DNA from: a virus
DNA: 64,000 bases
Strand: one strand, 5' to 3'
Virus record (IMG/VR): IMGVR_UViG_3300027976_000033
The notes below the pieces were generated by a model. The model saw nothing but the letters and a program-made list of their open reading frames with translations, did no database searches and was not told the origin of the DNA. Position 1 is the first letter of the stretch, and each line of letters begins with the position of its first letter. Positions 16,375 through 30,905 of this stretch are shown piece by piece. Made by a program: the position numbers and the translations under genes.

Positions 16375-17025
16375 TTATGGCCAGTTATAAAATTTAACTG
16401 TTTGATTAATTCTATCATCTAAACCATGAGTACCGCCGTTGATTCTCTTTGTGAGATCGATAATTGCACTACGATTTACTCCTCTATCACAGATAGTCCA
16501 TAGACCATTTGAATCAAAAAAGAATTTTGCAGACTCGAATGCAAGTTCTGTTGCAACAATATCAGGATTTTTAAGAATATCTGGACGTTTTAAATATTTA
16601 GCAAAAGCCGTATAGTTATTTTTACCAGTTAGTTGAATAGCACCACGACCACGATATTTCCATCCGTCGCCAGATTTTTCATCACCGTTACCCATTCTAT
16701 TTGCATATACTCTATTTGCAATCATTTCAGGATTACGTGCATATTTTTTAGCTGTAGCGGCATTGAAATATTTTCCAAATGTCTTTAATAGACCTGATTC
16801 GGAATAATTTAAATTTTCGCTGAATTTTGTTAAACCTGCAGATTCATGAGAACATTGGCCGAAAAAGTGAGCCGATCTGATCTTCGATAATTTATAAAAC
16901 TTGGTCACTGCTCTAAATGTATTTGGTCCAAAAGCGCCGTCTGGATTTACACCAGATTTTGTTTGCAATAATTTTACTGGATTTGTTTCCACATCATTTC
17001 TCCTATCGTAATATATAATATACAT
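16375..17025 (-). CDS. endolysin: peptidoglycan-binding domain plus GH19 (chitinase-like) lysozyme domain
   Basis: GH19 signature NGDEKSGDGWKYRGRGAIQLTGKNNY; N-terminal PG_binding-like TKSGVNPDGAFGPNTFRAV. Confidence 0.7.
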   Translation of the reverse strand: MYIIYYDRRNDVETNPVKLLQTKSGVNPDGAFGPNTFRAVTKFYKLSKIRSAHFFGQCSHESAGLTKFSENLNYSESGLLKTFGKYFNAATAKKYARNPEMIANRVYANRMGNGDEKSGDGWKYRGRGAIQLTGKNNYTAFAKYLKRPDILKNPDIVATELAFESAKFFFDSNGLWTICDRGVNRSAIIDLTKRINGGTHGLDDRINQTVKFYNWP

Positions 17026-21060: not shown

Positions 21061-21690
21061 ATGAGCATTGAAAATATTATATTAAGTAGTTTGTTATATA
21101 ATGAAGATTACGTCAGAAAGACGATAGCATTTTTAAAGCCAGAATATTTTCATAACGATGCTGATAAAGTTCTTTATAAATTAATAGAACACTATTTCCA
21201 GAAGTACAATGCCTCTCCAACAAAGGAAGCATTGCTTCTGGACATAGATAAAGTATCTTTACCGGAACACGTTTTTAAAGAGTGTGTCGAAAAGACCAAG
21301 ACTTTAGAATATACCGAACAACAGATGGTTTGGCTTACAGATACTACAGAGAAATTCTGTCAAGACAAAGCTCTCTACAATGCGATCATGGATTCAATCA
21401 AAATTATCGATGACGATGATGACAAAAATCCATTATCTAAGGGTTCTATTCCACAAATTCTGAGTGACGCTTTAGCAGTATCGTTTGATACTGATATCGG
21501 TCATGATTATTTAGAAAATTCTGAAGAGAGATTCGAGTATTATCATTTAGCTGAAGCGAAAATACCATTCGACATTGAGCATTTTAATAATATCACTAAG
21601 GGTGGTGTTTCTAGAAAAACACTTACAATCATACTTGCTGGTTGTGTTCATCCATCAACAAAAATTAAAGTGCGAATTAGAAAAGTGTAA
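21061..21690 (+). CDS. 41: replicative helicase gp41, fragment 1: N-extein (21061-21642) plus 15-aa split-intein N half
   Basis: DnaB/gp41 N-terminal domain; ends ...KTLTIILAG|CVHPSTKIKVRIRKV* inside the Walker A loop (T4 LLAG-VNVGKS). Confidence 0.85.
   Translation: MSIENIILSSLLYNEDYVRKTIAFLKPEYFHNDADKVLYKLIEHYFQKYNASPTKEALLLDIDKVSLPEHVFKECVEKTKTLEYTEQQMVWLTDTTEKFCQDKALYNAIMDSIKIIDDDDDKNPLSKGSIPQILSDALAVSFDTDIGHDYLENSEERFEYYHLAEAKIPFDIEHFNNITKGGVSRKTLTIILAGCVHPSTKIKVRIRKV
21643..21687 (+). other. atypical split-intein N half (IntN, 15 aa)
   Basis: Cys-initiated 15-residue peptide between the extein and an in-frame stop; complemented by a 128-aa IntC downstream. Confidence 0.65.
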
Positions 21691-22309
21691 ATCCGCGCTG
21701 GTATCCAATATCAATATACGATTGCAACAAATCAGGCTTTATTCTAGTTCTATGTTTTCCATTAGTTACACATATGAAGCCAGTAAGAGCTCTGCCGCCC
21801 TTAGCACAAATAATTTTTTTTACATCTGGATCGAAAAAGGCTCCTATTTTATTTTCTCTTTGTGTTTTAGAGCCAGCAGTTCCACCCTTTGAACACATGT
21901 TTTTTCTAAAGACTGGATCGAAAGTTCCTACTTTATTTTTGGATTGTGTCACCGCCGCCTTTCTGGCGCTAGCTCTGATTGATTCTTTATTATTTTTATA
22001 TTTATCAGAATGAAATCCGATTTTGTTTTTATGACAGAACTTACCAGTGATAATTCGCTGTTTAGTTGAAAGCTTCGCACCCAACATGTGCATAGATCTT
22101 AAATCATTTGGATTTTTATATATTTTCCACAATAAGAAATGAGCAATTATGTGTTCTCTAATATTTAGATATGTTAAATTTTCTTGTAAATCGCCGCCGC
22201 CCATGTGTTTTGGAATTATGTGATGAGCATGTAATCCGCTGGCGTAGCCATATTTTTCTTTTAATGATTTTCTATTTTCACACAATGATGAATAGATTAT
22301 ATCATACAT
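21677..22309 (-). CDS. HNH homing endonuclease (free-standing, opposite strand, between the split-intein halves)
   Basis: GLHAHHIIPKHMGGGD ... NLTYLNIREHIIAH HNH motif. Confidence 0.75.
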   Translation of the reverse strand: MYDIIYSSLCENRKSLKEKYGYASGLHAHHIIPKHMGGGDLQENLTYLNIREHIIAHFLLWKIYKNPNDLRSMHMLGAKLSTKQRIITGKFCHKNKIGFHSDKYKNNKESIRASARKAAVTQSKNKVGTFDPVFRKNMCSKGGTAGSKTQRENKIGAFFDPDVKKIICAKGGRALTGFICVTNGKHRTRIKPDLLQSYIDIGYQRGFTLF

Positions 22310-22323
22310 GTTTTAATCTTTCG

Positions 22324-22331
22324 TATAAATA
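22324..22331 (+). promoter_or_regulatory. T4-type late promoter octamer TATAAATA upstream of gp41 fragment 2
   Basis: exact TATAAATA 46 nt upstream of ATG 22377. Confidence 0.4.
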
Positions 22332-22376
22332 TTATGCCAGTGCCGGCTAGTAATATTTATTATTTTGGAGTTTTTA

Positions 22377-22760
22377 ATGAATAATTGGGTAGAAAAAGAA
22401 ATAGAAATAGGTGCCGTAGATGACTTGCTTAAAGAGGGTTATGAAGTAGAGGTATATTCTCCAGATGGTTGGGTTGGCATTAATTTTTTTGTTGATAAGG
22501 GTTCATATGAAGAATATATCATTACAACCGCAAATGGATTAGAAGTCAAATGTAACGCGGATCATTTATTTAAGTCTGTTGATGATGAATGGATTACTGC
22601 ACAAGAGTTAGAATATATGCAAGATCCTGTAGAATTAGTAACGATACATGGACCATCATTAGCATTTACCATTAAGACAGATAATATAATTCCAATTGTA
22701 GACATAAATGTTAATCATAAAAATAAGCGATATTATACAAATGGTATAGAATCACACAAT
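22377..22760 (+). other. atypical split-intein C half (IntC, 128 aa, contains block B)
   Basis: contains EVKCNADHLF (block B) and terminal GIESHN followed by +1 Thr. Confidence 0.65.
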
Positions 22761-23558
22761 ACTGGCGCGGGCAAAAGTTTGGCAATGTGCCACATGGCAG
22801 CTGGCAATCTCATGGATAATAAGAGTGTCCTATATATCACGCTCGAAATGGCTGAAGAAAAGATCGCAGAAAGAATTGATGCTAATCTTCTAAATATTAC
22901 CATGGACGATTTGGATAAAACTCCAAAAGCCTACTACGATAAAATGATTGCTAAGCTAAAGTCCAGAACTATGGGCAAGCTTATCATTAAAGAATATCCA
23001 ACTTCAACAGCCCATGCAAATCACTTTCGTCATCTTCTTAATGAATTAAAAATTAAGAAGAATTTTATACCAGACATCATCTATATCGATTACATCAATC
23101 TATGCGGATCAGTCAGAATTAAGGCCGGTGCTAATGCTAACTCGTACACGATGATTAAGTCGATTGCCGAAGAACTTCGTGGACTTGCCGTTGAACACAA
23201 CGTTCCTATCATTAGTGCTACACAGGTTACTCGAGCTGGATATGGTTCAAGCGATATTGAAATTACCGATACATCTGAATGTATCTTCCAGGATGAAATG
23301 ATTGAACTGCGTGATGGTAGTTCTAAAATGATTAAAGATATTGTAGTTGGAGATCAAATTATATCTAATGATCAATATAAAACGGTTCATATGGTTCATC
23401 ATTCGAAACTCAAAGACTGTTATAAGATAAAAACATCAGCTGGCAAAGAAATAATTGTAAGCAAAGATCATGTATTTCCAACAAAGCGTGGCAGAATATC
23501 AATCGAAACTGGTTTGAGTGTTGGTGATAATCTTAATAGTAGGAACCGTGATGAGTAA
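22377..23558 (+). CDS. 41: gp41 fragment 2: 128-aa IntC (22377-22760) plus central extein (22761-23279) plus IntN of second split intein (23280-23555)
   Basis: ...NGIESHN|TGAGKSLAMCHMA completes the Walker A motif; DnaB RecA-like core; ends ...DTSE|CIFQDEM...NRDE*. Confidence 0.85.
   Translation: MNNWVEKEIEIGAVDDLLKEGYEVEVYSPDGWVGINFFVDKGSYEEYIITTANGLEVKCNADHLFKSVDDEWITAQELEYMQDPVELVTIHGPSLAFTIKTDNIIPIVDINVNHKNKRYYTNGIESHNTGAGKSLAMCHMAAGNLMDNKSVLYITLEMAEEKIAERIDANLLNITMDDLDKTPKAYYDKMIAKLKSRTMGKLIIKEYPTSTAHANHFRHLLNELKIKKNFIPDIIYIDYINLCGSVRIKAGANANSYTMIKSIAEELRGLAVEHNVPIISATQVTRAGYGSSDIEITDTSECIFQDEMIELRDGSSKMIKDIVVGDQIISNDQYKTVHMVHHSKLKDCYKIKTSAGKEIIVSKDHVFPTKRGRISIETGLSVGDNLNSRNRDE
23280..23555 (+). 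other. split-intein N half (IntN, 92 aa), gp41-1-like
   Basis: CIFQDEMIELRDGS ... KDHVFPT (block B) ... stop; same pattern as described gp41-type split IntN. Confidence 0.8.
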
Positions 23559-23817
23559 TATTTATTTAGCATGCTTAGCTAAAGCAGAGTACTTGATGGA
23601 AAATGGTTATCCAGTTGGTAAGATTGATTTGGCACAATTGACCGATCTTCTTGTTAAATTGGAAAATGAGAAAATAGAAAAGCAAACACTCTCAGATGCT
23701 GTTATAGATTATAATGATACTATTGTCGAAATCATAGAGCTTGGAGAACTGGAAACAGTCGATCTTTCTGTGTCTGGTGATAATCTTTTCTATTGTAATG
23801 ACATATTAACAAAGAAT
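23551..23817 (+). other. split-intein C half (IntC; start uncertain, 89 aa from first ATG)
   Basis: blocks F/G VDLSVSGDNLFYCNDILTKN then +1 Ser. Confidence 0.6.
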
Positions 23818-24102
23818 AGTTTTGGACTTCCCGCCACTGCAGATTTAATGTTTGCTCTAGTTACATCTGAAGAGATGGAAAAATTAAATCAAGTTATGGT
23901 GAAGCAACTTAAAAACAGATATTCAGACATATCAAAGGATAGGAGATTTTTTGTTGGACTAGATAAGAGTAGAATGAAATTTTATGATCTAGAAGATAGT
24001 GCACAACGAGTTTTAAATGACGATGTTGCTATAATGGATCAAACGCCGACTGGTAAAAGAATTAATGATGAACTTAGAGATAAAATGAAAGATTTTAAAT
24101 GA
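23551..24102 (+). CDS. 41: gp41 fragment 3: IntC (23551-23817) plus C-extein (23818-24102)
   Basis: ATG overlaps the fragment-2 stop (ATGAGTAA); ...VDLSVSGDNLFYCNDILTKN|SFGLPATADLMFAL continues T4 gp41 ...SAGLPATADFMLAV. Confidence 0.8.
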   Translation: MSNIYLACLAKAEYLMENGYPVGKIDLAQLTDLLVKLENEKIEKQTLSDAVIDYNDTIVEIIELGELETVDLSVSGDNLFYCNDILTKNSFGLPATADLMFALVTSEEMEKLNQVMVKQLKNRYSDISKDRRFFVGLDKSRMKFYDLEDSAQRVLNDDVAIMDQTPTGKRINDELRDKMKDFK

Positions 24103-25045: not shown

Positions 25046-26005
25046 ATGAATAAGATTGATCACATTCCACATCTCGAAGATCTTTTGATACTTCGCGGGA
25101 CCGATGCTCTCAATGATATTATTGATGTTCTTTATTATAAGGACTCGTTCTCTATCAAATACGATGGTGCTCCTGCCGTATTGTTTGGAACATGTCCAAC
25201 TGAGAATAAGTTCTTCGTTGCAACTAAATCATTTTTTAATAAGACGCCAAAGATTAATTATAATGTGGAAGACATTACTAGAAACCACGGCAAATCACCG
25301 GAACTGGTAAATAAGCTCACGTATATATTTCCACTATTAGAAGATCTGTTTCATAATGATCTTTCGGTAACACATCAATCATCAATCATCCAAGGAGATT
25401 TGTTATTTCTTGGCAGTGATCTCGATGGAACAAACACTTTCACAGCTAACACTATAACATATAAATTTGATTCACCACACCGAGTTTACTATGACATTGG
25501 TATAGCACTTCATACACATTATGACACTCAACTGAAAAGCAGTACATCTATTAGTGATAACGTTTTAAAAACGCCGCAATTGGATAGAAGTTTCTATGCT
25601 CCACAAACGAGTGTTTCTCGAGGAAGAGGTGGAGACGGTAAACTATCATCATTCCTTTACAGTCTTGTGAATTTTAATAGATATGCTAAAAGCTTTAAGC
25701 CAGACCCAAAAAATGTAGTGCTCGTAAATAAACTCATTAGAAATAATGAAGAACTAACAATTTATAATCTACAAGATATTTTTAACAACGAAGAATTTGT
25801 AATCCTATATTTGAAAGTTAAAGCTGCTAAAGAACTTTTAATTAGTATGCTAGACCGGTACTATGGACGACATGGTTTGATCAAAAGTATCAATGATGTT
25901 TCATGTGGTCATGAAGGATTTGTCACTAGGCTCCAGGACAATACACCAGTAAAACTTGTTAATAGAAAAGCATTCAGCTATGCAAACTTTGAGAGACATT
26001 CATGA
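25046..26005 (+). CDS. putative nucleotidyltransferase/ligase-like protein (KxDG motif)
   Basis: SIKYDGAPAVLFG resembles motif I of covalent nucleotidyltransferases; other motifs not securely recognisable. Confidence 0.3.
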   Translation: MNKIDHIPHLEDLLILRGTDALNDIIDVLYYKDSFSIKYDGAPAVLFGTCPTENKFFVATKSFFNKTPKINYNVEDITRNHGKSPELVNKLTYIFPLLEDLFHNDLSVTHQSSIIQGDLLFLGSDLDGTNTFTANTITYKFDSPHRVYYDIGIALHTHYDTQLKSSTSISDNVLKTPQLDRSFYAPQTSVSRGRGGDGKLSSFLYSLVNFNRYAKSFKPDPKNVVLVNKLIRNNEELTIYNLQDIFNNEEFVILYLKVKAAKELLISMLDRYYGRHGLIKSINDVSCGHEGFVTRLQDNTPVKLVNRKAFSYANFERHS

Positions 26006-26559
26006 AAACTTTAATATTCACATATGGTAGATTTAATCCACCAACACTCGGTCATGAACTAGTATTCAATTTGATGTGCAAGACACGAATGAAATATAAA
26101 AATGCAGAAACTATGGTTGTACTAAGCCATTCTAATGATAAGAATAAAAACCCGTTGGATATAGACTTTAAATTCAACATATTGTCTGAATCATATCCGA
26201 CTATGAATTTCGTTAAAGCATCGTCACATCATCCATCGTTTATTCAACATCTAACACTGGCTTCACCAAATTATGACAAATTAATTTTTGTGTGTGGTGA
26301 AGATCGTGTTAAAGAATATAAGCGATTATTGAATAACTACAACCATCTCGATTTTAATTTCAAAGAAATAGAAGTGATTTCTGTCGGAAAAAGAGATGAA
26401 AGCGACGATGTTTCTGGAATTAGTGGTTCTAAAATGAGACAGTTTGTTAAAGATAGTGATAAAGAATCATTTAAGCTTAATTGTCCATTAGCATTTAGTG
26501 AAGGCTTTAAAAATGTTACATACAATTATTTGAGAGTAAAGGAGAAAGATGATGAGTAA
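26002..26559 (+). CDS. cytidylyltransferase-family nucleotidyltransferase (NMN/NaMN adenylyltransferase or PPAT-like)
   Basis: FTYGRFNPPTLGHE (HxGH motif) and ISGSKMRQ (ISSTxxR-like). Confidence 0.55.
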   Translation: MKTLIFTYGRFNPPTLGHELVFNLMCKTRMKYKNAETMVVLSHSNDKNKNPLDIDFKFNILSESYPTMNFVKASSHHPSFIQHLTLASPNYDKLIFVCGEDRVKEYKRLLNNYNHLDFNFKEIEVISVGKRDESDDVSGISGSKMRQFVKDSDKESFKLNCPLAFSEGFKNVTYNYLRVKEKDDE

Positions 26560-26588
26560 CACTATAGAAAAATCAATCAATGAACGCA
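26544..26588 (+). repeat. 45-bp direct repeat copy A (copy B at 27370-27414, 1 mismatch)
   Basis: agaaagatgatgagtaacac[t/g]atagaaaaatcaatcaatgaacgc; copy A spans the 3' end of the NMNAT-like gene, copy B is internal to ORF 27160. Confidence 0.8.
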
Positions 26589-26610
26589 ACCGAGCAGAGC
26601 AGGCTAGCCA
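26589..26610 (+). repeat. 22-bp exact direct repeat accgagcagagcaggctagcca (second copy 26821-26842)
   Basis: exact match seen in sequence. Confidence 0.8.
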
Positions 26611-26842
26611 TAAACTAGCATATATCATGCAGCGCGAAGGCCTCCCAATGGACGCGCAGCTAATGACCGCTGTCGCGGCTGAGATTGAAGCATTCTGGAA
26701 TAAAATGGGAGCCAAGACCATGGAGCCCGATCAAACGCAAAGGAACCCCCCCAATGACCAATAACCCAATACCCTGCGCCGATGATGAGCGCAAGGCAAC
26801 CACCCAACAGATAATCAGCGACCGAGCAGAGCAGGCTAGCCA

Positions 26843-27163
26843 ATGACCTGCCACACATTCACAACATTCATCCAGCGCGGCGATGACGAACTGGAAGTCC
26901 GCGTCACCTATAGCGTCTCGCCATTTATCGCACAGACATATTGGCAACCAGCTGAAGGCGGCGACTGTGAAATCATCAATGCCGAGTTTGTCGGGATCGA
27001 TGTCGCTGGTCGGATCGCAGACTTCAATGATGCAGAATATGAAGCTCTGCAAATCGAGTGTGAAGAACGGGCAGGTAGCGACGAACAGGACGCCGCCGCT
27101 GATTATGCAGATTATAGATATGAACAACACCGTGACCAGCAAATGATGGAGAAATTAACATGA
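26843..27163 (+). CDS. hypothetical protein (GC-rich island)
   Basis: ORF in high-GC segment; stop overlaps next start. Confidence 0.45.
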   Translation: MTCHTFTTFIQRGDDELEVRVTYSVSPFIAQTYWQPAEGGDCEIINAEFVGIDVAGRIADFNDAEYEALQIECEERAGSDEQDAAADYADYRYEQHRDQQMMEKLT

Positions 27164-27597
27164 CCGATATACCACAGTGGGCTTATGATAGAGCGCGCGA
27201 ACTGCGCGGAGGTTTTGGTACTTTTCAAGACCACGACAGAACCTTCGCCCTCTACATAAGCGAGCATGAAGACCCGCCAGAAGACCCGCTGCTACAGCAG
27301 GCGCTGGATATCGCTGCGGATGTTTATCTTAAGGCAGGATATAACAGCGATTTCACTGATAAGATTAGTAGAAAGATGATGAGTAACACGATAGAAAAAT
27401 CAATCAATGAACGCGATCGCCAATTGGCTTTTAATGCGCTGAATGGTGCTTATGGCGATGGCTCGAATGGCTGCGCTGATCTGGCTTTGGCTATTGCACA
27501 GAACCGTATTTTTGGGATGACTTATGAAAAAGTTAAATCCAATGATAAAGCCTTAGAAGCCACCGTGAAAGAAGATATTGAGAGGAATATAGGATGA
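27160..27597 (+). CDS. hypothetical protein (GC-rich island)
   Basis: coupled ORF chain; contains the internal copy of the 45-bp repeat. Confidence 0.5.
   Translation: MTDIPQWAYDRARELRGGFGTFQDHDRTFALYISEHEDPPEDPLLQQALDIAADVYLKAGYNSDFTDKISRKMMSNTIEKSINERDRQLAFNALNGAYGDGSNGCADLALAIAQNRIFGMTYEKVKSNDKALEATVKEDIERNIG
27370..27414 (+). repeat. 45-bp direct repeat copy B
   Basis: see copy A. Confidence 0.8.
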
Positions 27598-28067
27598 TCA
27601 ATGAAACAATAATGGGTGATCCAGTGATGGCTGATACGATAGAGCCGACGCTATTCGAACGCATTGGCAAAGCTGAATGGGGTGCGACAAAAGCGCAGAC
27701 AGCGAAAGAACATGGAGCTTCCATGAAAAAATCAGTTGAGATTACCGCCGAATATTTCGAGCAGGATGGGCCGCAACAATTGAACGGCCTGTATATTGCT
27801 GGAACTGAAACAGTTATCTGTCACACTGGAACAAGCCCGAATAGTCCAGAGATAGCGGCGAAATTGACTGAACTGTGGAACGATCAGGACGCCACCCTAT
27901 CCCAGGCGGCTCAAACGCGGAAGGTGATTGAGGATTGTGTTGAGGCTTTGGAATACGCAAAAGAAGCAATCGAATTTGCTTATATGGTCTCACTAGAACA
28001 GCCCCGCGAGATAGAAATGACCCGCACAGCCATCACCGCCGCCAAAGCATATCTAGGAGAGAAGTGA
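27594..28067 (+). CDS. hypothetical protein (GC-rich island)
   Basis: coupled ORF. Confidence 0.5.
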   Translation: MINETIMGDPVMADTIEPTLFERIGKAEWGATKAQTAKEHGASMKKSVEITAEYFEQDGPQQLNGLYIAGTETVICHTGTSPNSPEIAAKLTELWNDQDATLSQAAQTRKVIEDCVEALEYAKEAIEFAYMVSLEQPREIEMTRTAITAAKAYLGEK

Positions 28068-28101
28068 TGGGAACACTGTTGTTAGGCGGTCTTTATATAA
28101 T

Positions 28102-28350
28102 TTGCTGTTTCTTTTTTATTGCCAGTCTGGGCGCAGTGATCGATCTATGGTGGGACCAATGACCGACCTAAGCAAACGCCTGAAAGCTGAGAGCGTCCCG
28201 GATCGGGAACTGGATGCGGATATTGCTTGCGCGCTCCATGAGGGCATCGGGCATGATGCCCCGCCAGACAATACGACTGCCCGGAATGGTAAATTCTGTC
28301 ACGGAAGCCAGCCCGGCAATTATGACGTTCATGTCTTAAGTGGATTGTAG
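28102..28350 (+). CDS. hypothetical protein (GC-rich island)
   Basis: ORF. Confidence 0.35.
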   Translation: MLFLFYCQSGRSDRSMVGPMTDLSKRLKAESVPDRELDADIACALHEGIGHDAPPDNTTARNGKFCHGSQPGNYDVHVLSGL

Positions 28351-28379
28351 ACGGAAATGCAGCCGTAATTATTTAAAAT

Positions 28380-28387
28380 TATAAATA
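28380..28387 (+). promoter_or_regulatory. T4-type late promoter octamer TATAAATA
   Basis: exact octamer about 235 nt upstream of the 760-aa ORF. Confidence 0.35.
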
Positions 28388-28393
28388 TATAGT

Positions 28394-28412
28394 GCAAGAA
28401 CAGTTCTTGCAT
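28394..28412. repeat. perfect 19-bp palindrome tgcaagaacagttcttgca
   Basis: seen in sequence. Confidence 0.7.
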
Positions 28413-28417
28413 AACGG

Positions 28418-28564
28418 TTAGGCCAAGGCAATCCCGTTTAACAAAGATAAGTCTTAGGAAAACTCTTTGATGTTATTATATGTTTATCAACTCATCCGCG
28501 ACAGAAACGCTACTTCTCCAAAGCTAGATACTATGTCGGAGAAATGGGATTGTCCTTGGCCTAA
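28418..28564. repeat. 147-bp element bounded by 18/19-bp terminal inverted repeats (ttaggccaagg-caatccc / gggattgtccttggcctaa)
   Basis: long-range inverted repeat flanking about 110 bp non-coding; candidate structured 5'UTR RNA or MITE-like element. Confidence 0.4.
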
Positions 28565-28622
28565 TTAAGTTTGTCTTTCGAGATTTCTCGGAGGGCTTTT
28601 TTTATACGCAGAAAAAGAAGAT

Positions 28623-30905
28623 ATGGAAAACAAACAAGTAGAAGCAGAAGAACTTGATGAAGTTCTCAGTATTGCTCAGAGACAGAAACGATCTCAAATC
28701 ATTCGTGCAAATAAGAACAAGCTTAAGATAGCTCGTCGTGTTGCTAGAGGCAAACATGCTCCACAGAAGATAATTAAAAAGAGAGCATATGCATTAGCAC
28801 GTAAAATTATTAGAAGAAAATTTGCAGGTAAAAGAGGCGCCGATTATGCCAATCTTTCAGTTTCAGAAAAGATGGTCATCGATAAGGCAATAGAATCTAA
28901 AACCAAACTTATTAAAAAATTAGCATTAAGACTAATTCCTCGCATACAAAATATGGAATCGAAAAGATTACAATCATTCATGGCAGGTAAAAAACTAGAA
29001 AACTTGGGTAAAAAAGAAATGGCCGAATCATTAAACGAAAAATTTGCTGAAATTATTGGTAAAAAGAAAGAAGAAAAAGATAAAGAAAAATCTGTTAAAG
29101 TTAGTTCTTCTCCCAATATTAAATTCTATAGAAAATTTTCAGAAGAAAAAGAACTAGAAACACCAACGTTCTTGGCTCTTAAGAAAAAGTCAGATTCTAG
29201 TAACATAGATATCGATATACTAGGTGAAGTATATAATCGTGGTTGTGATTGCTGGAAAGAATCATATAACTATTCCATGGAACAGTATGCATTTGCTAGA
29301 GTTAATTCATTCATTAATATGGGTAAAACATACTTTAAAGAAGATGCCGATCTTCATGAAGCCCAACTCGCTCGCGTTGGATCTCCAGGCGCTTCTTCTC
29401 GCAGATGGATCGATCATGTAACCAAAAAGAGAACTGAATTATCTCAATCGCGCCGCAAAAATGCTAAGAAACTTGAAGTAGTAGAATCATCTTCTCGTGC
29501 CGAAAGCCCGGCATTTAAAGACGCTCAGAAAAATCTCGCTGATTTGAAAGCCGGTAAAGTTAAGCGTGAATATAAACCGAGAGAACAGAGCCTTGATCAG
29601 AGAATTAAATCGCAGAATAAAGCATGGGCTAAAGAAGATCATGCTACAGCCGAACACCATCGCAAAGCACATAATGATCTTAAAAAAGAACACGGTGAAA
29701 GCTTTAAGATGGAAGATGATTTAGATGCTGGTAATCACAAAAAATGGGGATTCAGTGACGAAGAAGCCCGTGGCGCACATGAAGAAATTGGCTACCACAA
29801 TGATAAAGTTCGTCAAAAATTGCAGCATCATCATAACAAGTTTCATAAAGCCGTTTCTGGATACGAAGAATTGTCCGGTAAGCAATATAGAGGCAAACTT
29901 CATGAAGCAGTTGATCCAGATTATGAAAAGAAGCTTCAAGCACATGTTGAATTATCTAAAAAGCTTATAGATAAATATGGTGGAATACATCAGAGAACAC
30001 CAAAGGGTAATGGATTTGTACATGCAGCAGCATTTGGAAAGCCAGATCATGTTGTTCTTCGTAATAATCATGAAGACGATAGAATAGTCCATATTAAACA
30101 TTTAAAGACTGAGCAGGATTATATGAAGAAAGAATCTATGGATGAAGCTTGGACGGAAAAAGACAGATTTGGTAAAGACGTTGTTAATGTAAAAAATCCA
30201 TATGGTAAAGGATTTAGTCAACAGGGTGTTCATATAGTCAATGGAAAAGAAGTACCTAGCTGTGTAAAGAACACCAATGAAGAAGCAGAAATAGATGAAT
30301 CTAACAATACACCACATGTTAGACCACATTTTGGCGATGTTAATAATACTGAAGCTCAAACTGGTTGGAAAGCATCTAATAAGCATGGTAAAGTAAAATT
30401 GTTTGGAATGAAGTTCAAAGATTCTGCTAACAGACATGCTGGCATTAATGAGTCGAGTTCTAAATTTGGTGCGGCATGGGACCCATACACACCAGACGGC
30501 CCAGCATACCCAAAGGCTGCTTATAGTAAAACAACTGGAAAGTTGAATAAAAAGAGTGCAGCTTTCAAACAACACGTAAAAGATCATTATCCTAAACATC
30601 TTCATAAGCAATACGGTATTAATGAAGAATCAATAGTTGAAGGCGATCCTAATCCGGCGCATAGGGAAGTTGGCACAGACTCAGCAACTAAAATATTTGC
30701 TAATGACACACCGGGTCAATGTAAGCATACAAAATGTGGTACACCAGATTGTTGTGGTGAATGTAAGTCTGTAAAAGAGGGTTCAATCGAAGGAATTCCA
30801 GTAGTACATACCAATTCTTCTGATACGAAACGAGTGAAGGTCAAAAGTGCAAGTGGCAAAATGGTCTGGAGAAACGTCAGATCATCTAGAGATATAATTA
30901 AATAG
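28623..30905 (+). CDS. large Lys/Glu/His-rich protein, candidate virion-internal protein
   Basis: 760-aa ORF, strongly basic low-complexity N-terminal half; no enzymatic motifs recognised. Confidence 0.55.
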   Translation: MENKQVEAEELDEVLSIAQRQKRSQIIRANKNKLKIARRVARGKHAPQKIIKKRAYALARKIIRRKFAGKRGADYANLSVSEKMVIDKAIESKTKLIKKLALRLIPRIQNMESKRLQSFMAGKKLENLGKKEMAESLNEKFAEIIGKKKEEKDKEKSVKVSSSPNIKFYRKFSEEKELETPTFLALKKKSDSSNIDIDILGEVYNRGCDCWKESYNYSMEQYAFARVNSFINMGKTYFKEDADLHEAQLARVGSPGASSRRWIDHVTKKRTELSQSRRKNAKKLEVVESSSRAESPAFKDAQKNLADLKAGKVKREYKPREQSLDQRIKSQNKAWAKEDHATAEHHRKAHNDLKKEHGESFKMEDDLDAGNHKKWGFSDEEARGAHEEIGYHNDKVRQKLQHHHNKFHKAVSGYEELSGKQYRGKLHEAVDPDYEKKLQAHVELSKKLIDKYGGIHQRTPKGNGFVHAAAFGKPDHVVLRNNHEDDRIVHIKHLKTEQDYMKKESMDEAWTEKDRFGKDVVNVKNPYGKGFSQQGVHIVNGKEVPSCVKNTNEEAEIDESNNTPHVRPHFGDVNNTEAQTGWKASNKHGKVKLFGMKFKDSANRHAGINESSSKFGAAWDPYTPDGPAYPKAAYSKTTGKLNKKSAAFKQHVKDHYPKHLHKQYGINEESIVEGDPNPAHREVGTDSATKIFANDTPGQCKHTKCGTPDCCGECKSVKEGSIEGIPVVHTNSSDTKRVKVKSASGKMVWRNVRSSRDIIK

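Follow-up and report, generated by a model that had tools for sequence, protein, structure and literature searches.

The DNA analyzed here, hereafter called the window, is a stretch of 64,000 nucleotides (nt) from the IMG/VR virus record IMGVR_UViG_3300027976_000033, and its backbone is that of a distant T4-like (Kyanoviridae-like), marine-type myovirus with a G + C (GC) content of ~36%. At positions 26575-28370 the window contains a GC-rich island, which is probably a cassette of mosaic structure, made up of small accessory genes and pieces of genes that were acquired horizontally. This interpretation is based upon the abrupt shift in composition at the borders of the island, the presence of homologues of its open reading frames (ORFs) in foreign phages, its mosaic polymorphism between closely related strains, the existence of relatives in which the flanking coding region is a single continuous gene, and the position of its direct repeats, which lie at the breakpoints of the homology to other phages.

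Composition and Gene Content of the Island

The GC content of the island is 0.492, compared with a mean of 0.356 (standard deviation 0.020, maximum 0.419) for all other 1796-bp segments of the window, corresponding to z=6.8. Both edges are sharp: in 100-bp segments, GC rises from 0.33 at 26500 to 0.54 at 26600 on the left and falls from 0.51 at 28250 to 0.38 at 28300 on the right. The shift in GC that had been claimed in a sequence-only reading of this DNA is therefore real, and the codon usage analysis proposed with it also indicates a non-native origin. GC at third codon positions (GC3) is 0.43-0.56 in island ORFs versus 0.272±0.049 (maximum 0.40) in 74 backbone ORFs (z of 3.2-5.9), the GC excess thus falling at synonymous positions, and the relative synonymous codon usage of the island correlates at 0.07 with that of the backbone and at 0.42 with that of the other genes of L038, a phage contig of 53% GC from the same sample as the contig of the window. 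The island is not uniform, since a native-like segment at 27379-27597 (GC 0.41, GC3 0.37) parts its GC-rich blocks.

Instead of the four coupled ORFs counted previously, the island contains five ORFs of at least 63 amino acids (aa), namely of 71, 106, 145, 157, and 63 aa, together with two mini-ORFs of 30 and 32 aa; stop and start codons overlap at every gene junction and the encoded proteins are uniformly acidic (pI 4.0-5.3). The features of the region are listed below.

26002-26559, plus strand: NMNAT-like cytidylyltransferase gene, 185 aa (PF01467, E=6e-4; phrog_3041, E=2e-44)
26543-26588, plus strand: repeat D2, copy 1; ~46 nt, AT-rich, backbone-like GC of 0.33
26549-26764, plus strand: ORF-A, 71 aa, GC3 0.54
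26586-26610, plus strand: repeat D3, copy 1; 25 nt, with an exact match of 22 nt from 26589; abuts D2 copy 1
26738-26822, plus strand: fragment of a 52-aa gene; upstream region and first 23 codons of a gene of L054-type phages (see below)
26818-26842, plus strand: repeat D3, copy 2; directly before the start codon of ORF-B, absent from the close relative
26843-27163, plus strand: ORF-B, 106 aa, pI 4.05; full-length member of a conserved phage family
27160-27597, plus strand: ORF-C, 145-aa chimera; in-frame fusion at D2 copy 2
27370-27415, plus strand: repeat D2, copy 2; AT-rich patch in ORF-C, at the joint of its foreign N-terminal half and gene X
27594-28067, plus strand: ORF-D, 157 aa; short leader, conserved core, and variable helical C-terminal module
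28064-28350, plus strand: ORF-E (32 aa, GTG start, hydrophobic) and ORF-F (63 aa)
28380-28387, plus strand: TATAAATA, matching the consensus of T4-type late promoters; the 760-aa gene begins 236 nt further downstream
28392-28603, plus strand: structured non-coding element of backbone-like GC; part of the intervening segment, not GC-rich
28623-30905, plus strand: 760-aa gene, the putative downstream half of a split gene; matches positions 221-331 of 602 in phrog_23027

The search for mobility genes (integrase, transposase, or endonuclease) yielded no domain in any frame of the island, GenBank phages gave no DNA match to the island and its flanks in either the near or the distant search mode, and scans for tRNA and tmRNA genes and Rfam families gave nothing. 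(The 14-nt inverted repeat I1 that flanks the island was attributed to chance, as ~0.7 such pairs are expected in 3 kb, and the short repeat families D1 and D4-D6 were likewise judged to be chance.)

Homologues in GC-Richer Phages

ORF-B belongs to a family of ~105-aa proteins with the invariant motif QPAEGG, of which 27 homologues were found at 40-85% identity. The homologue in L038 (79% aa identity) lies directly before an 89-aa homologue of the N-terminal half of ORF-C, with 76% DNA identity over 26843-27344, and the same gene pair occurs in three contigs of 52-53% GC from the same samples (L054-56); in L057 the homologue of ORF-B occurs by itself. At the DNA level, ORF-B is 85% identical to its counterpart in L057 and 76% identical to those in L038 and L054. 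Members of the family in prophages (L039, L040, and L041) occupy the early-left operon, where they are flanked by the repressor on one side and the RecT/integrase end on the other. The 89-94-aa genes that follow ORF-B in phages such as L038 and L054, hereafter called donor-type phages, are homologous to the N-terminal half of ORF-C (27160-27366).

The core of ORF-D comprises ~75 residues (residues ~24-96) with the invariant sequence GTETVICHTGTSPNSP. Profile searches retrieved 236 cluster representatives of this family, usually with variable N-terminal extensions, and besides the window the core is carried by 17 phage contigs, all of 46-63% GC. The closest DNA, with 88-94% identity to the core, is found in L022, a contig of 2152 bp and 52% GC from another sample. 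ORF-D has no Pfam family, PDB match, or fold match, and Pfam searches with the large fusion proteins that contain its domain returned only one sub-threshold Lar-like match and one PGDYG match; the former lies in the N-terminus of P0174, an ORF-D-domain protein. In the block of ORF-E and ORF-F, which has a GC of 0.55, ORF-F corresponds to no more than the first 26 residues of a family of 117-aa phage proteins and is therefore a gene fragment. (A resemblance of ORF-F to NinX/DUF2591 was considered and dropped, as Pfam did not confirm it.)

Repeats at the Breakpoints of Homology

A repeat search of 26000-29000 found D2 and D3 in two copies each. D2 copy 1 spans the last codons and stop of the NMNAT-like gene, followed by the ribosome binding site (RBS), start, and first 13 codons (MMSNTIEKSINER) of ORF-A. 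It aligns with copy 2 over 53 nt at an identity of 92%, or over 48 nt if the two mismatches within them are counted (BLAST E ~1e-15), and both copies have a backbone-like GC of 0.33-0.35. The 45-bp repeat previously described here is real and has one mismatch, but its register was one base off, the correct pairing being of 26543-26587 with 27370-27414. The exact 22-nt repeat reported at 26589 and 26821 is also present and extends to 25 nt at 96% identity, for a chance expectation of ~3e-7 exact 22-mer pairs in 3 kb; its first copy marks the left GC boundary.

These repeats are positioned at breakpoints of the homology to donor-type phages. ORF-A is chimeric, its 13 initial codons being of native type and the remainder GC-rich and foreign. 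The fragment of the 52-aa gene, which is contained within the mini-ORF at 26754-26846 and shows 82% DNA identity to L054 (2108-2194) and 93% identity over 30 nt to L038, is truncated at D3 copy 2. The 52-aa gene of donor-type phages lies ~1.2 kb downstream of the ORF-B/C pair, whereas in the window its fragment lies upstream of ORF-B, so that the gene order of the window is permuted. The homology of ORF-C to P0025 and to the genes of L038 and L054 ends at ~27344, just before D2 copy 2, and its C-terminal part corresponds to gene X (MMSNTIEKSINER..., 27379-27597, 72 aa), which has a near-backbone composition (GC3 of 0.37 vs. 0.49 in the N-terminal half). (A diversity-generating retroelement was considered and rejected, as the mismatches of the repeats are not A-specific and no reverse transcriptase is present among the genes examined, at 18-38 kb.)

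Donor-type contigs have internal direct repeats of their own at gene junctions, as seen in L022 and in L054 at 2100-2300: ...AYLGDG* is followed by ATGACCCCCAACC twice, the gene start MTNPEIECPDCGG is repeated, and CAAAGGAACCCCCAATGACCAAT is present on both sides of the 52-aa gene. The joint ...AY[LI]GEK*/GGAGAGAAGTGATG and the start motif AAAGGAACCCCCAATGACC recur in donor contigs, and the overall pattern suggests that conserved junction sequences may drive shuffling within the donor gene pool.

Neither D2 nor D3 contains a promoter-like match, and neither folds into a hairpin better than shuffled sequences (z of +1.6, +1.3, and 0.0); they are thus not cassettes of the promoter early stem-loop (PeSL) type. 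The capture by repeat-mediated recombination that had been proposed is not shown by these data, since the repeats are more simply explained as duplications made at insertion joints. An alternative is that the 827-bp block flanked by D2 and the 232-bp block flanked by D3 are mobile modules, which would form PeSL-like mini-circles and integrate in Campbell style at a repeat. Direct repeats do bracket both blocks, the gene order is circularly permuted with respect to L054 and L038, the phage encodes UvsX, and there is a precedent in the PeSL mini-circles of T4-type phages, which form when short direct repeats recombine (Arbiol et al. 2010, PMC2839356). Yet each repeat has only two copies, neither with promoter or stem-loop, no circle junction was observed, and no D2xD2 deletion junction was found in IMG/VR, a search of low power given that it holds few contigs of this lineage; the repeats can equally well be one-off duplications. 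We regard mobile modules as unlikely.

A broader version of this idea, which we hold to be quite improbable, is that the whole 2.06 kb between the two flanking genes constitutes an undescribed, endonuclease-free, gene-splitting mobile cassette that would operate via junction repeats or mini-circles and spread between co-infecting phages of unrelated families. The structured element of ~210 nt would then be a functional RNA (a late small RNA or a leader) that either came with the cassette or evolved to re-coordinate the two gene halves.

Polymorphism between Strains

A related strain could be reconstructed from two contigs, L019 and L012, that share an overlap of 73 nt. This strain agrees with the window at 96-99% of backbone positions (97.8% and 99.7% in the two flanks of the island), but its island has a different content. 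In the alignment, blocks with ~99% identity (27340-27920) alternate with two blocks that can hardly be aligned (the N-terminal half of ORF-C, 27183-27340, and the C-terminal module of ORF-D, 27920-28030), and a 268-bp piece at 28069-28336 containing ORF-E and ORF-F is present in the window and absent from the related strain. Furthermore, the N-terminal half of ORF-B is replaced in the related strain, and 26722-26995 is substituted by a Lar-like ORF plus an ORF of 66 aa. The first 58 codons of ORF-A continue in frame into this Lar-like ORF, which has the leader M[IT]NETIMGDPVM and the C-terminal module in common with ORF-D. It matches the whole profile of both PF14354 (E=1.7e-5, 25.4 bits for a curated cut-off of 28.6) and TIGR03655 (E=2.8e-6, 27.5 bits for a curated cut-off of 39.6); none of the ORFs in the window matches these Lar profiles or any anti-defence family.

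The N-terminal half of ORF-C is hypervariable, with three alleles. The third allele (L010, 4730-4870) is window-like up to 27157 and then identical in 103 of 103 nt to an L054-type phage (52% GC), the switch falling inside a shared stretch of 36 nt (27122-27157 in the window). L010 may be either a very recent recombinant between phages or an assembly chimera, and we cannot tell which. Both strains carry both copies of D2 with the same differences, indicating that acquisition of the core of the island predates their split. The suggestion that the acquisition was recent holds only in a relative sense: GC is unameliorated, but the repeats are shared by both close strains and the nearest donor-like sequences are only 76-94% identical.

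Source of the Island DNA

Judged by these homologies, the source of the island is the gene pool of unrelated, mid- to high-GC phages, with homologues in phage and prophage contigs of 46-63% GC. The nearest sampled sources are the 52-53% GC phages of the same samples, and the more distant homologues belong to the early operons of temperate phages of 55-63% GC; a prophage resident in the host is a possible physical donor. The earlier suggestion of foreign DNA acquired by recombination, with repeats at the joints, agrees with these results, but the origin from the host chromosome that it also put forward does not.

Captured chromosomal DNA would account for a GC above that of the phage, as expected for many hosts of T4-like phages, and relatives of ORF-B are indeed found on a scaffold of 275 kb (L039) and in metagenome-assembled genomes of Sphingopyxis and Pseudomonas. 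These loci are, however, prophage regions with a repressor, RecT/YqaJ, and integrase, and only two matches of the ORF-B family were obtained in the species-representative bacterial genomes. The domain of ORF-D, with its 236 cluster representatives, matches 15 IMG/VR viral contigs and none of 185,579 such genomes. Moreover, the closest matches at the DNA level are to phage contigs of the same samples, and the island contains no housekeeping or metabolic gene of a host. A bacterial chromosomal source is therefore very unlikely, and for host DNA outside prophages the idea already fails.

The Gene at the Insertion Site

The 185-aa product of the NMNAT-like gene aligns to the N-terminal domain of single ORFs in relatives, namely L048, HTVC008M gp130 (596 aa), Melnitz gp18 (650 aa), and C48C1 CDS0089. 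In L048, a distant metagenome contig, the site is occupied by one ORF of 709 aa in one frame with a uniform GC of 0.36-0.41; its NMNAT-like domain has 43% aa identity to that of the window, and behind this domain residues 7-116 and 185-231 of the 760-aa protein align in the same frame. The 760-aa gene also matches Melnitz gp18, HTVC008M gp130, and C48C1. In the alignment, the end of the 185-aa protein (...NYLRVKEKDDE*) and the start of the 760-aa protein (MENKQVEAEELDEV...) are adjacent in an inter-domain linker; consequently, the 2063 bp of 26560-28622 form an intervening segment in an otherwise continuous coding region. The comparison indicates that an ancestral gene, consisting of the cytidylyltransferase domain and a long C-terminal region, would have been split into two genes here. 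The continuous ORFs of the distant relatives are the best available "empty site", a state for which related phages had been proposed as a check: there the flanking genes form one continuous ORF and the island is missing. The island is accordingly not conserved in all relatives, just as its codons are not those of the phage.

The right-hand part of the intervening segment contains the late-promoter-like motif and the structured element. TATAAATA occurs in the window at chance frequency (10 found vs. 9.3 expected), with nine occurrences on the coding strand and one on the other, and consequently its designation as a late promoter is suggested by motif and position only. The fold of 28385-28605 has a minimum free energy of -74.4 kcal/mol (z=-6.75), equalled by 0 of 200 shuffled sequences. 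It consists of a 5' hairpin (28392-28412) and a long-range helix of ~23 bp (28416-28438 with 28545-28566) that encloses a branched domain, followed by a terminator-like hairpin at 28573-28596 with a run of seven T (together 28573-28603), as identified by a terminator scan; the RBS and ATG of the 760-aa gene come next. The element has no Rfam family at the gathering threshold, at E<=1, or at E<=10, and the related strain differs from the window in this part by one mismatch in 362 nt. It may be a late small RNA of ~210 nt or a regulatory leader and, together with the mechanism that made the junction duplications, it is the least explained aspect of the locus. (A JGI contig, L004, leaves the window right after TATAAATATATA and then reads CCTAGATCTTCAG at its positions 1759-1771, a sequence not found elsewhere in the window; this divergence, from 28392 onward in the window, reflects either an artefact of the contig end or an alternative right-hand context.)

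The continuity of the gene in relatives, with the strongly structured element lying just before its downstream half, could also be taken to mean that the 2.06 kb are a self-splicing intron or a homing-endonuclease or split-intein cassette, in which 28392-28603 would be the catalytic core or a spacer resembling the intercistronic untranslated sequence (IC-UTS) of other phages. T4-like phages are known for introns and gene-splitting endonucleases (PMC2988022), and elsewhere in this genome a helicase gene is fragmented and associated with intein signatures and an HNH-like ORF. Against this, no intron family of Rfam was matched at any of the thresholds above, a coupled ORF overlaps the stop codon that closes the upstream half, and the element ends in a terminator with T-run that precedes an RBS and ATG. 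Pfam searches of all plus-strand ORFs and of eight alternative or minus-strand ORFs found no HNH, GIY-YIG, LAGLIDADG, or intein domain. For a split intein in particular, the halves abut without extra sequence of intein size, the 185-aa protein has no intein/Hint match, and there is no Pfam match on record for the 760-aa protein. An intron, a homing-endonuclease cassette, or an intein is hence highly improbable.

The helicase gene just mentioned, gp41/DnaB-like and located at 21061-24102, comprises an ORF of 209 aa with the DnaB N-terminal domain, a minus-strand ORF of 210 aa with a weak HNH match (E=0.005), an ORF of 393 aa with DnaB_C and intein/Hint signatures at its C-terminus (E=1.6e-7), and an ORF of 183 aa with a C-intein-like block (...GDNLFYCNDILTKN|S). 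The close relative does not have 21643-22763, which includes the HNH ORF. These pieces resemble "fractured genes" as already known (Dassa et al. 2009), in which a split intein is combined with an endonuclease that stands free.

The Recipient Genome and Assembly Support

The backbone encodes PolB, UvsX, a DnaB/gp41-like helicase, a DenV-like glycosylase, a DUF6267 protein, the cytidylyltransferase, Acb1, and IMPDH, with nearly all its genes on one strand. Its relatives at the protein level are Kyanoviridae, including cyanomyoviruses, Pelagibacter phage HTVC008M, Methylophilales phage Melnitz, and phage C48C1. (The locus of the DUF6267 homologue in cyanomyoviruses is too distant to inform on synteny.) One gene at 16375-17025 lies on the minus strand amid a plus-strand region; it codes for a GH19 chitinase-like/PG_binding_3 protein, which is probably an endolysin-type enzyme.

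Both junctions of the island are 100% identical across independent MEGAHIT, Logan, and JGI assemblies of several samples (ENA ERZ27247425/29/31; Logan SRR5208770 and SRR5468154; JGI 3300007523 and 3300027983). Contigs often end inside the island or close to it, at 26634, 27128, 27170, 28391, 28430, and 28481, but these breaks coincide with single nucleotide polymorphisms between strains and with the 36-nt stretch common to a co-occurring phage, which points to population diversity and not to misassembly. Although the data are metagenomic and contigs break within the island, an assembly chimera is already refuted by the independent assemblies, and a native fast-evolving region with GC set by amino acid content is contradicted by the homologous island at the same site in the related strain, the GC excess at third codon positions, and the DNA-level homologues in other phages; we see next to no chance for either.

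Assembly History, Expression, and Function

The order of events, the recombination mechanism, the mode of expression, and the function of the island are what we infer from the observations above. Gene X would at first have been located directly after the NMNAT-like gene. A foreign block of 827 bp may then have been inserted at the start of X with duplication of ~46 nt (D2), which would have provided the first incoming ORF with the RBS and start of X, coupled to the stop codon of the NMNAT-like gene (ATGATGAGTAA); the last incoming gene, truncated, would have been fused in frame to X to produce ORF-C. D3 (22-25 nt) would bracket a nested sub-block of 232 bp. The island could thus have grown by at least two nested insertions, through short-homology or illegitimate recombination with duplication of 22-46 nt of target sequence. 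In the linker of the ancestral gene, the inserted sequence (26560-28622) would have comprised the island, the late-promoter-like motif, the structured RNA-like element with its terminator, and a new RBS and ATG. The island presumably keeps exchanging blocks with mid-GC phages, either co-infecting or present as resident prophages, at short conserved gene-junction sequences, and this continuing exchange would have produced the replacement of alleles in ORF-C and ORF-D, the 268-bp insertion or deletion, and the Lar-like insertion in the relative.

No plus-strand terminator was found inside the island, promoter-like matches in the region are at the level expected from shuffled sequences (12 found vs. 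10.7 expected), and all gene junctions overlap. Hence, the island genes are most likely expressed together with the upstream early/middle operon, which would be devoted to replication and nucleotide metabolism and of which they would form the translationally coupled tail. Their products are most probably accessory proteins that the phage can dispense with and that act in host takeover or counter-defence, a function hinted at by weak observations, namely the acidic nature of the proteins, their homologues in the early-left region of prophages, the Lar-like module of the relative, and the fusion in P0174.

Several points weigh against the interpretation of the island as an acquired mosaic cassette, or against parts of it. 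No exact donor was found, the best DNA identities being 76-94%. Viral and metagenome scans with both flanking proteins retrieved only the related strain and the distant L048, thus no close relative with an empty site; the gene is continuous only in distant relatives (31-43% aa identity), so that a gene fusion there is an alternative to fission here. The order and mechanism of the insertions are reconstructed from two genomes only, and the recombinant allele of L010 rests on one MEGAHIT contig with its crossover in the shared 36-nt stretch. As to function, searches of Pfam, PHROGs, NCBIfam, and PADLOC with all the ORFs of the island gave nothing significant, as did sequence-profile searches of PDB; AlphaFold2 models of ORF-D (mean per-residue confidence, pLDDT, of 71.5) and ORF-B (pLDDT 66.1) produced no match with E<0.6 when compared with PDB by Foldseek; and the Lar-like match is found only in the relative, below curated cut-offs.

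Comparison with Known Systems

The locus shows at nucleotide resolution, within one natural community, a T4-like phage trading small accessory genes with unrelated, GC-richer phages, with breakpoints, short duplicated joints, chimeric ORFs, and leftover gene fragments all visible and three alleles coexisting at one position. The conversion of one gene into two without a homing endonuclease would represent a simple route to gene fission, and the families of ORF-B (QPAEGG) and ORF-D (GTETVICHTGTSPNSP, sometimes in Lar-like fusions) emerge as candidates for host takeover or counter-defence.

Among known systems, the hyperplastic regions (HPRs) of T4-type phages and their shuffling by PeSL (PMC2839356; Comeau et al. 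2014, PMC4122927) similarly consist of clusters of small non-essential ORFs between core genes, which vary between close strains by insertion, deletion, and replacement and have short direct repeats at module borders. In the island, however, the repeats correspond to an RBS-start region and a coding junction, in two copies and without promoter or stem-loop, no mini-circle junction was observed, and the DNA is foreign in composition (49% vs. 36% GC) and traceable to phages that are not T4-like.

A second comparison is with the split genes of T4-like phages, such as those produced by mobE in nrdA of Aeh1 and mobA in gene 39/60 of T4 (Edgell et al. 2010, PMC2988022; Crona et al. 2010, PMC3045599), or by seg or an IC-UTS in gene 43 of phages 25 and 44RR (PMC2988022; PMC3045599). 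As in these cases, a coding region that is contiguous in relatives is found as two ORFs, the insert opens with an ORF overlapping the stop codon of the half before it, and the downstream half is preceded by a new promoter-like signal and, as with the IC-UTS, an untranslated structured spacer. In contrast, the insert in the window is a multi-gene patchwork from other phages without a homing endonuclease, and the split falls in an inter-domain linker and not in a catalytic core.

The island also resembles the early-left "moron"-type genes of temperate phages, including the Lar family, in that relatives of ORF-B are located in prophages between the repressor and the recombination/integrase genes, its products are small and acidic and encoded by genes with overlapping junctions, the island of the relative contains a Lar-like zinc-ribbon domain, and P0174 combines a Lar-like N-terminus with the domain of ORF-D. 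It differs from them in residing in a T4-like genome of virulent type with no evident promoter or terminator of its own, and in having no ORF of the window that matches Lar or an anti-defence family. Finally, the "ORFanage" regions of cyanomyoviruses (PMC4503421) are equally dispensable clusters of ORFans in genomes of Kyanoviridae type, gained or lost between close strains; there the ORFans have native composition and are deleted, whereas here the composition is foreign and the donor pool identifiable. The island is therefore best described as a hyperplastic, horizontally acquired accessory region that has also caused the insertional fission of a gene, a process already known, and current concepts of phage mosaicism are left unchanged by its finding.

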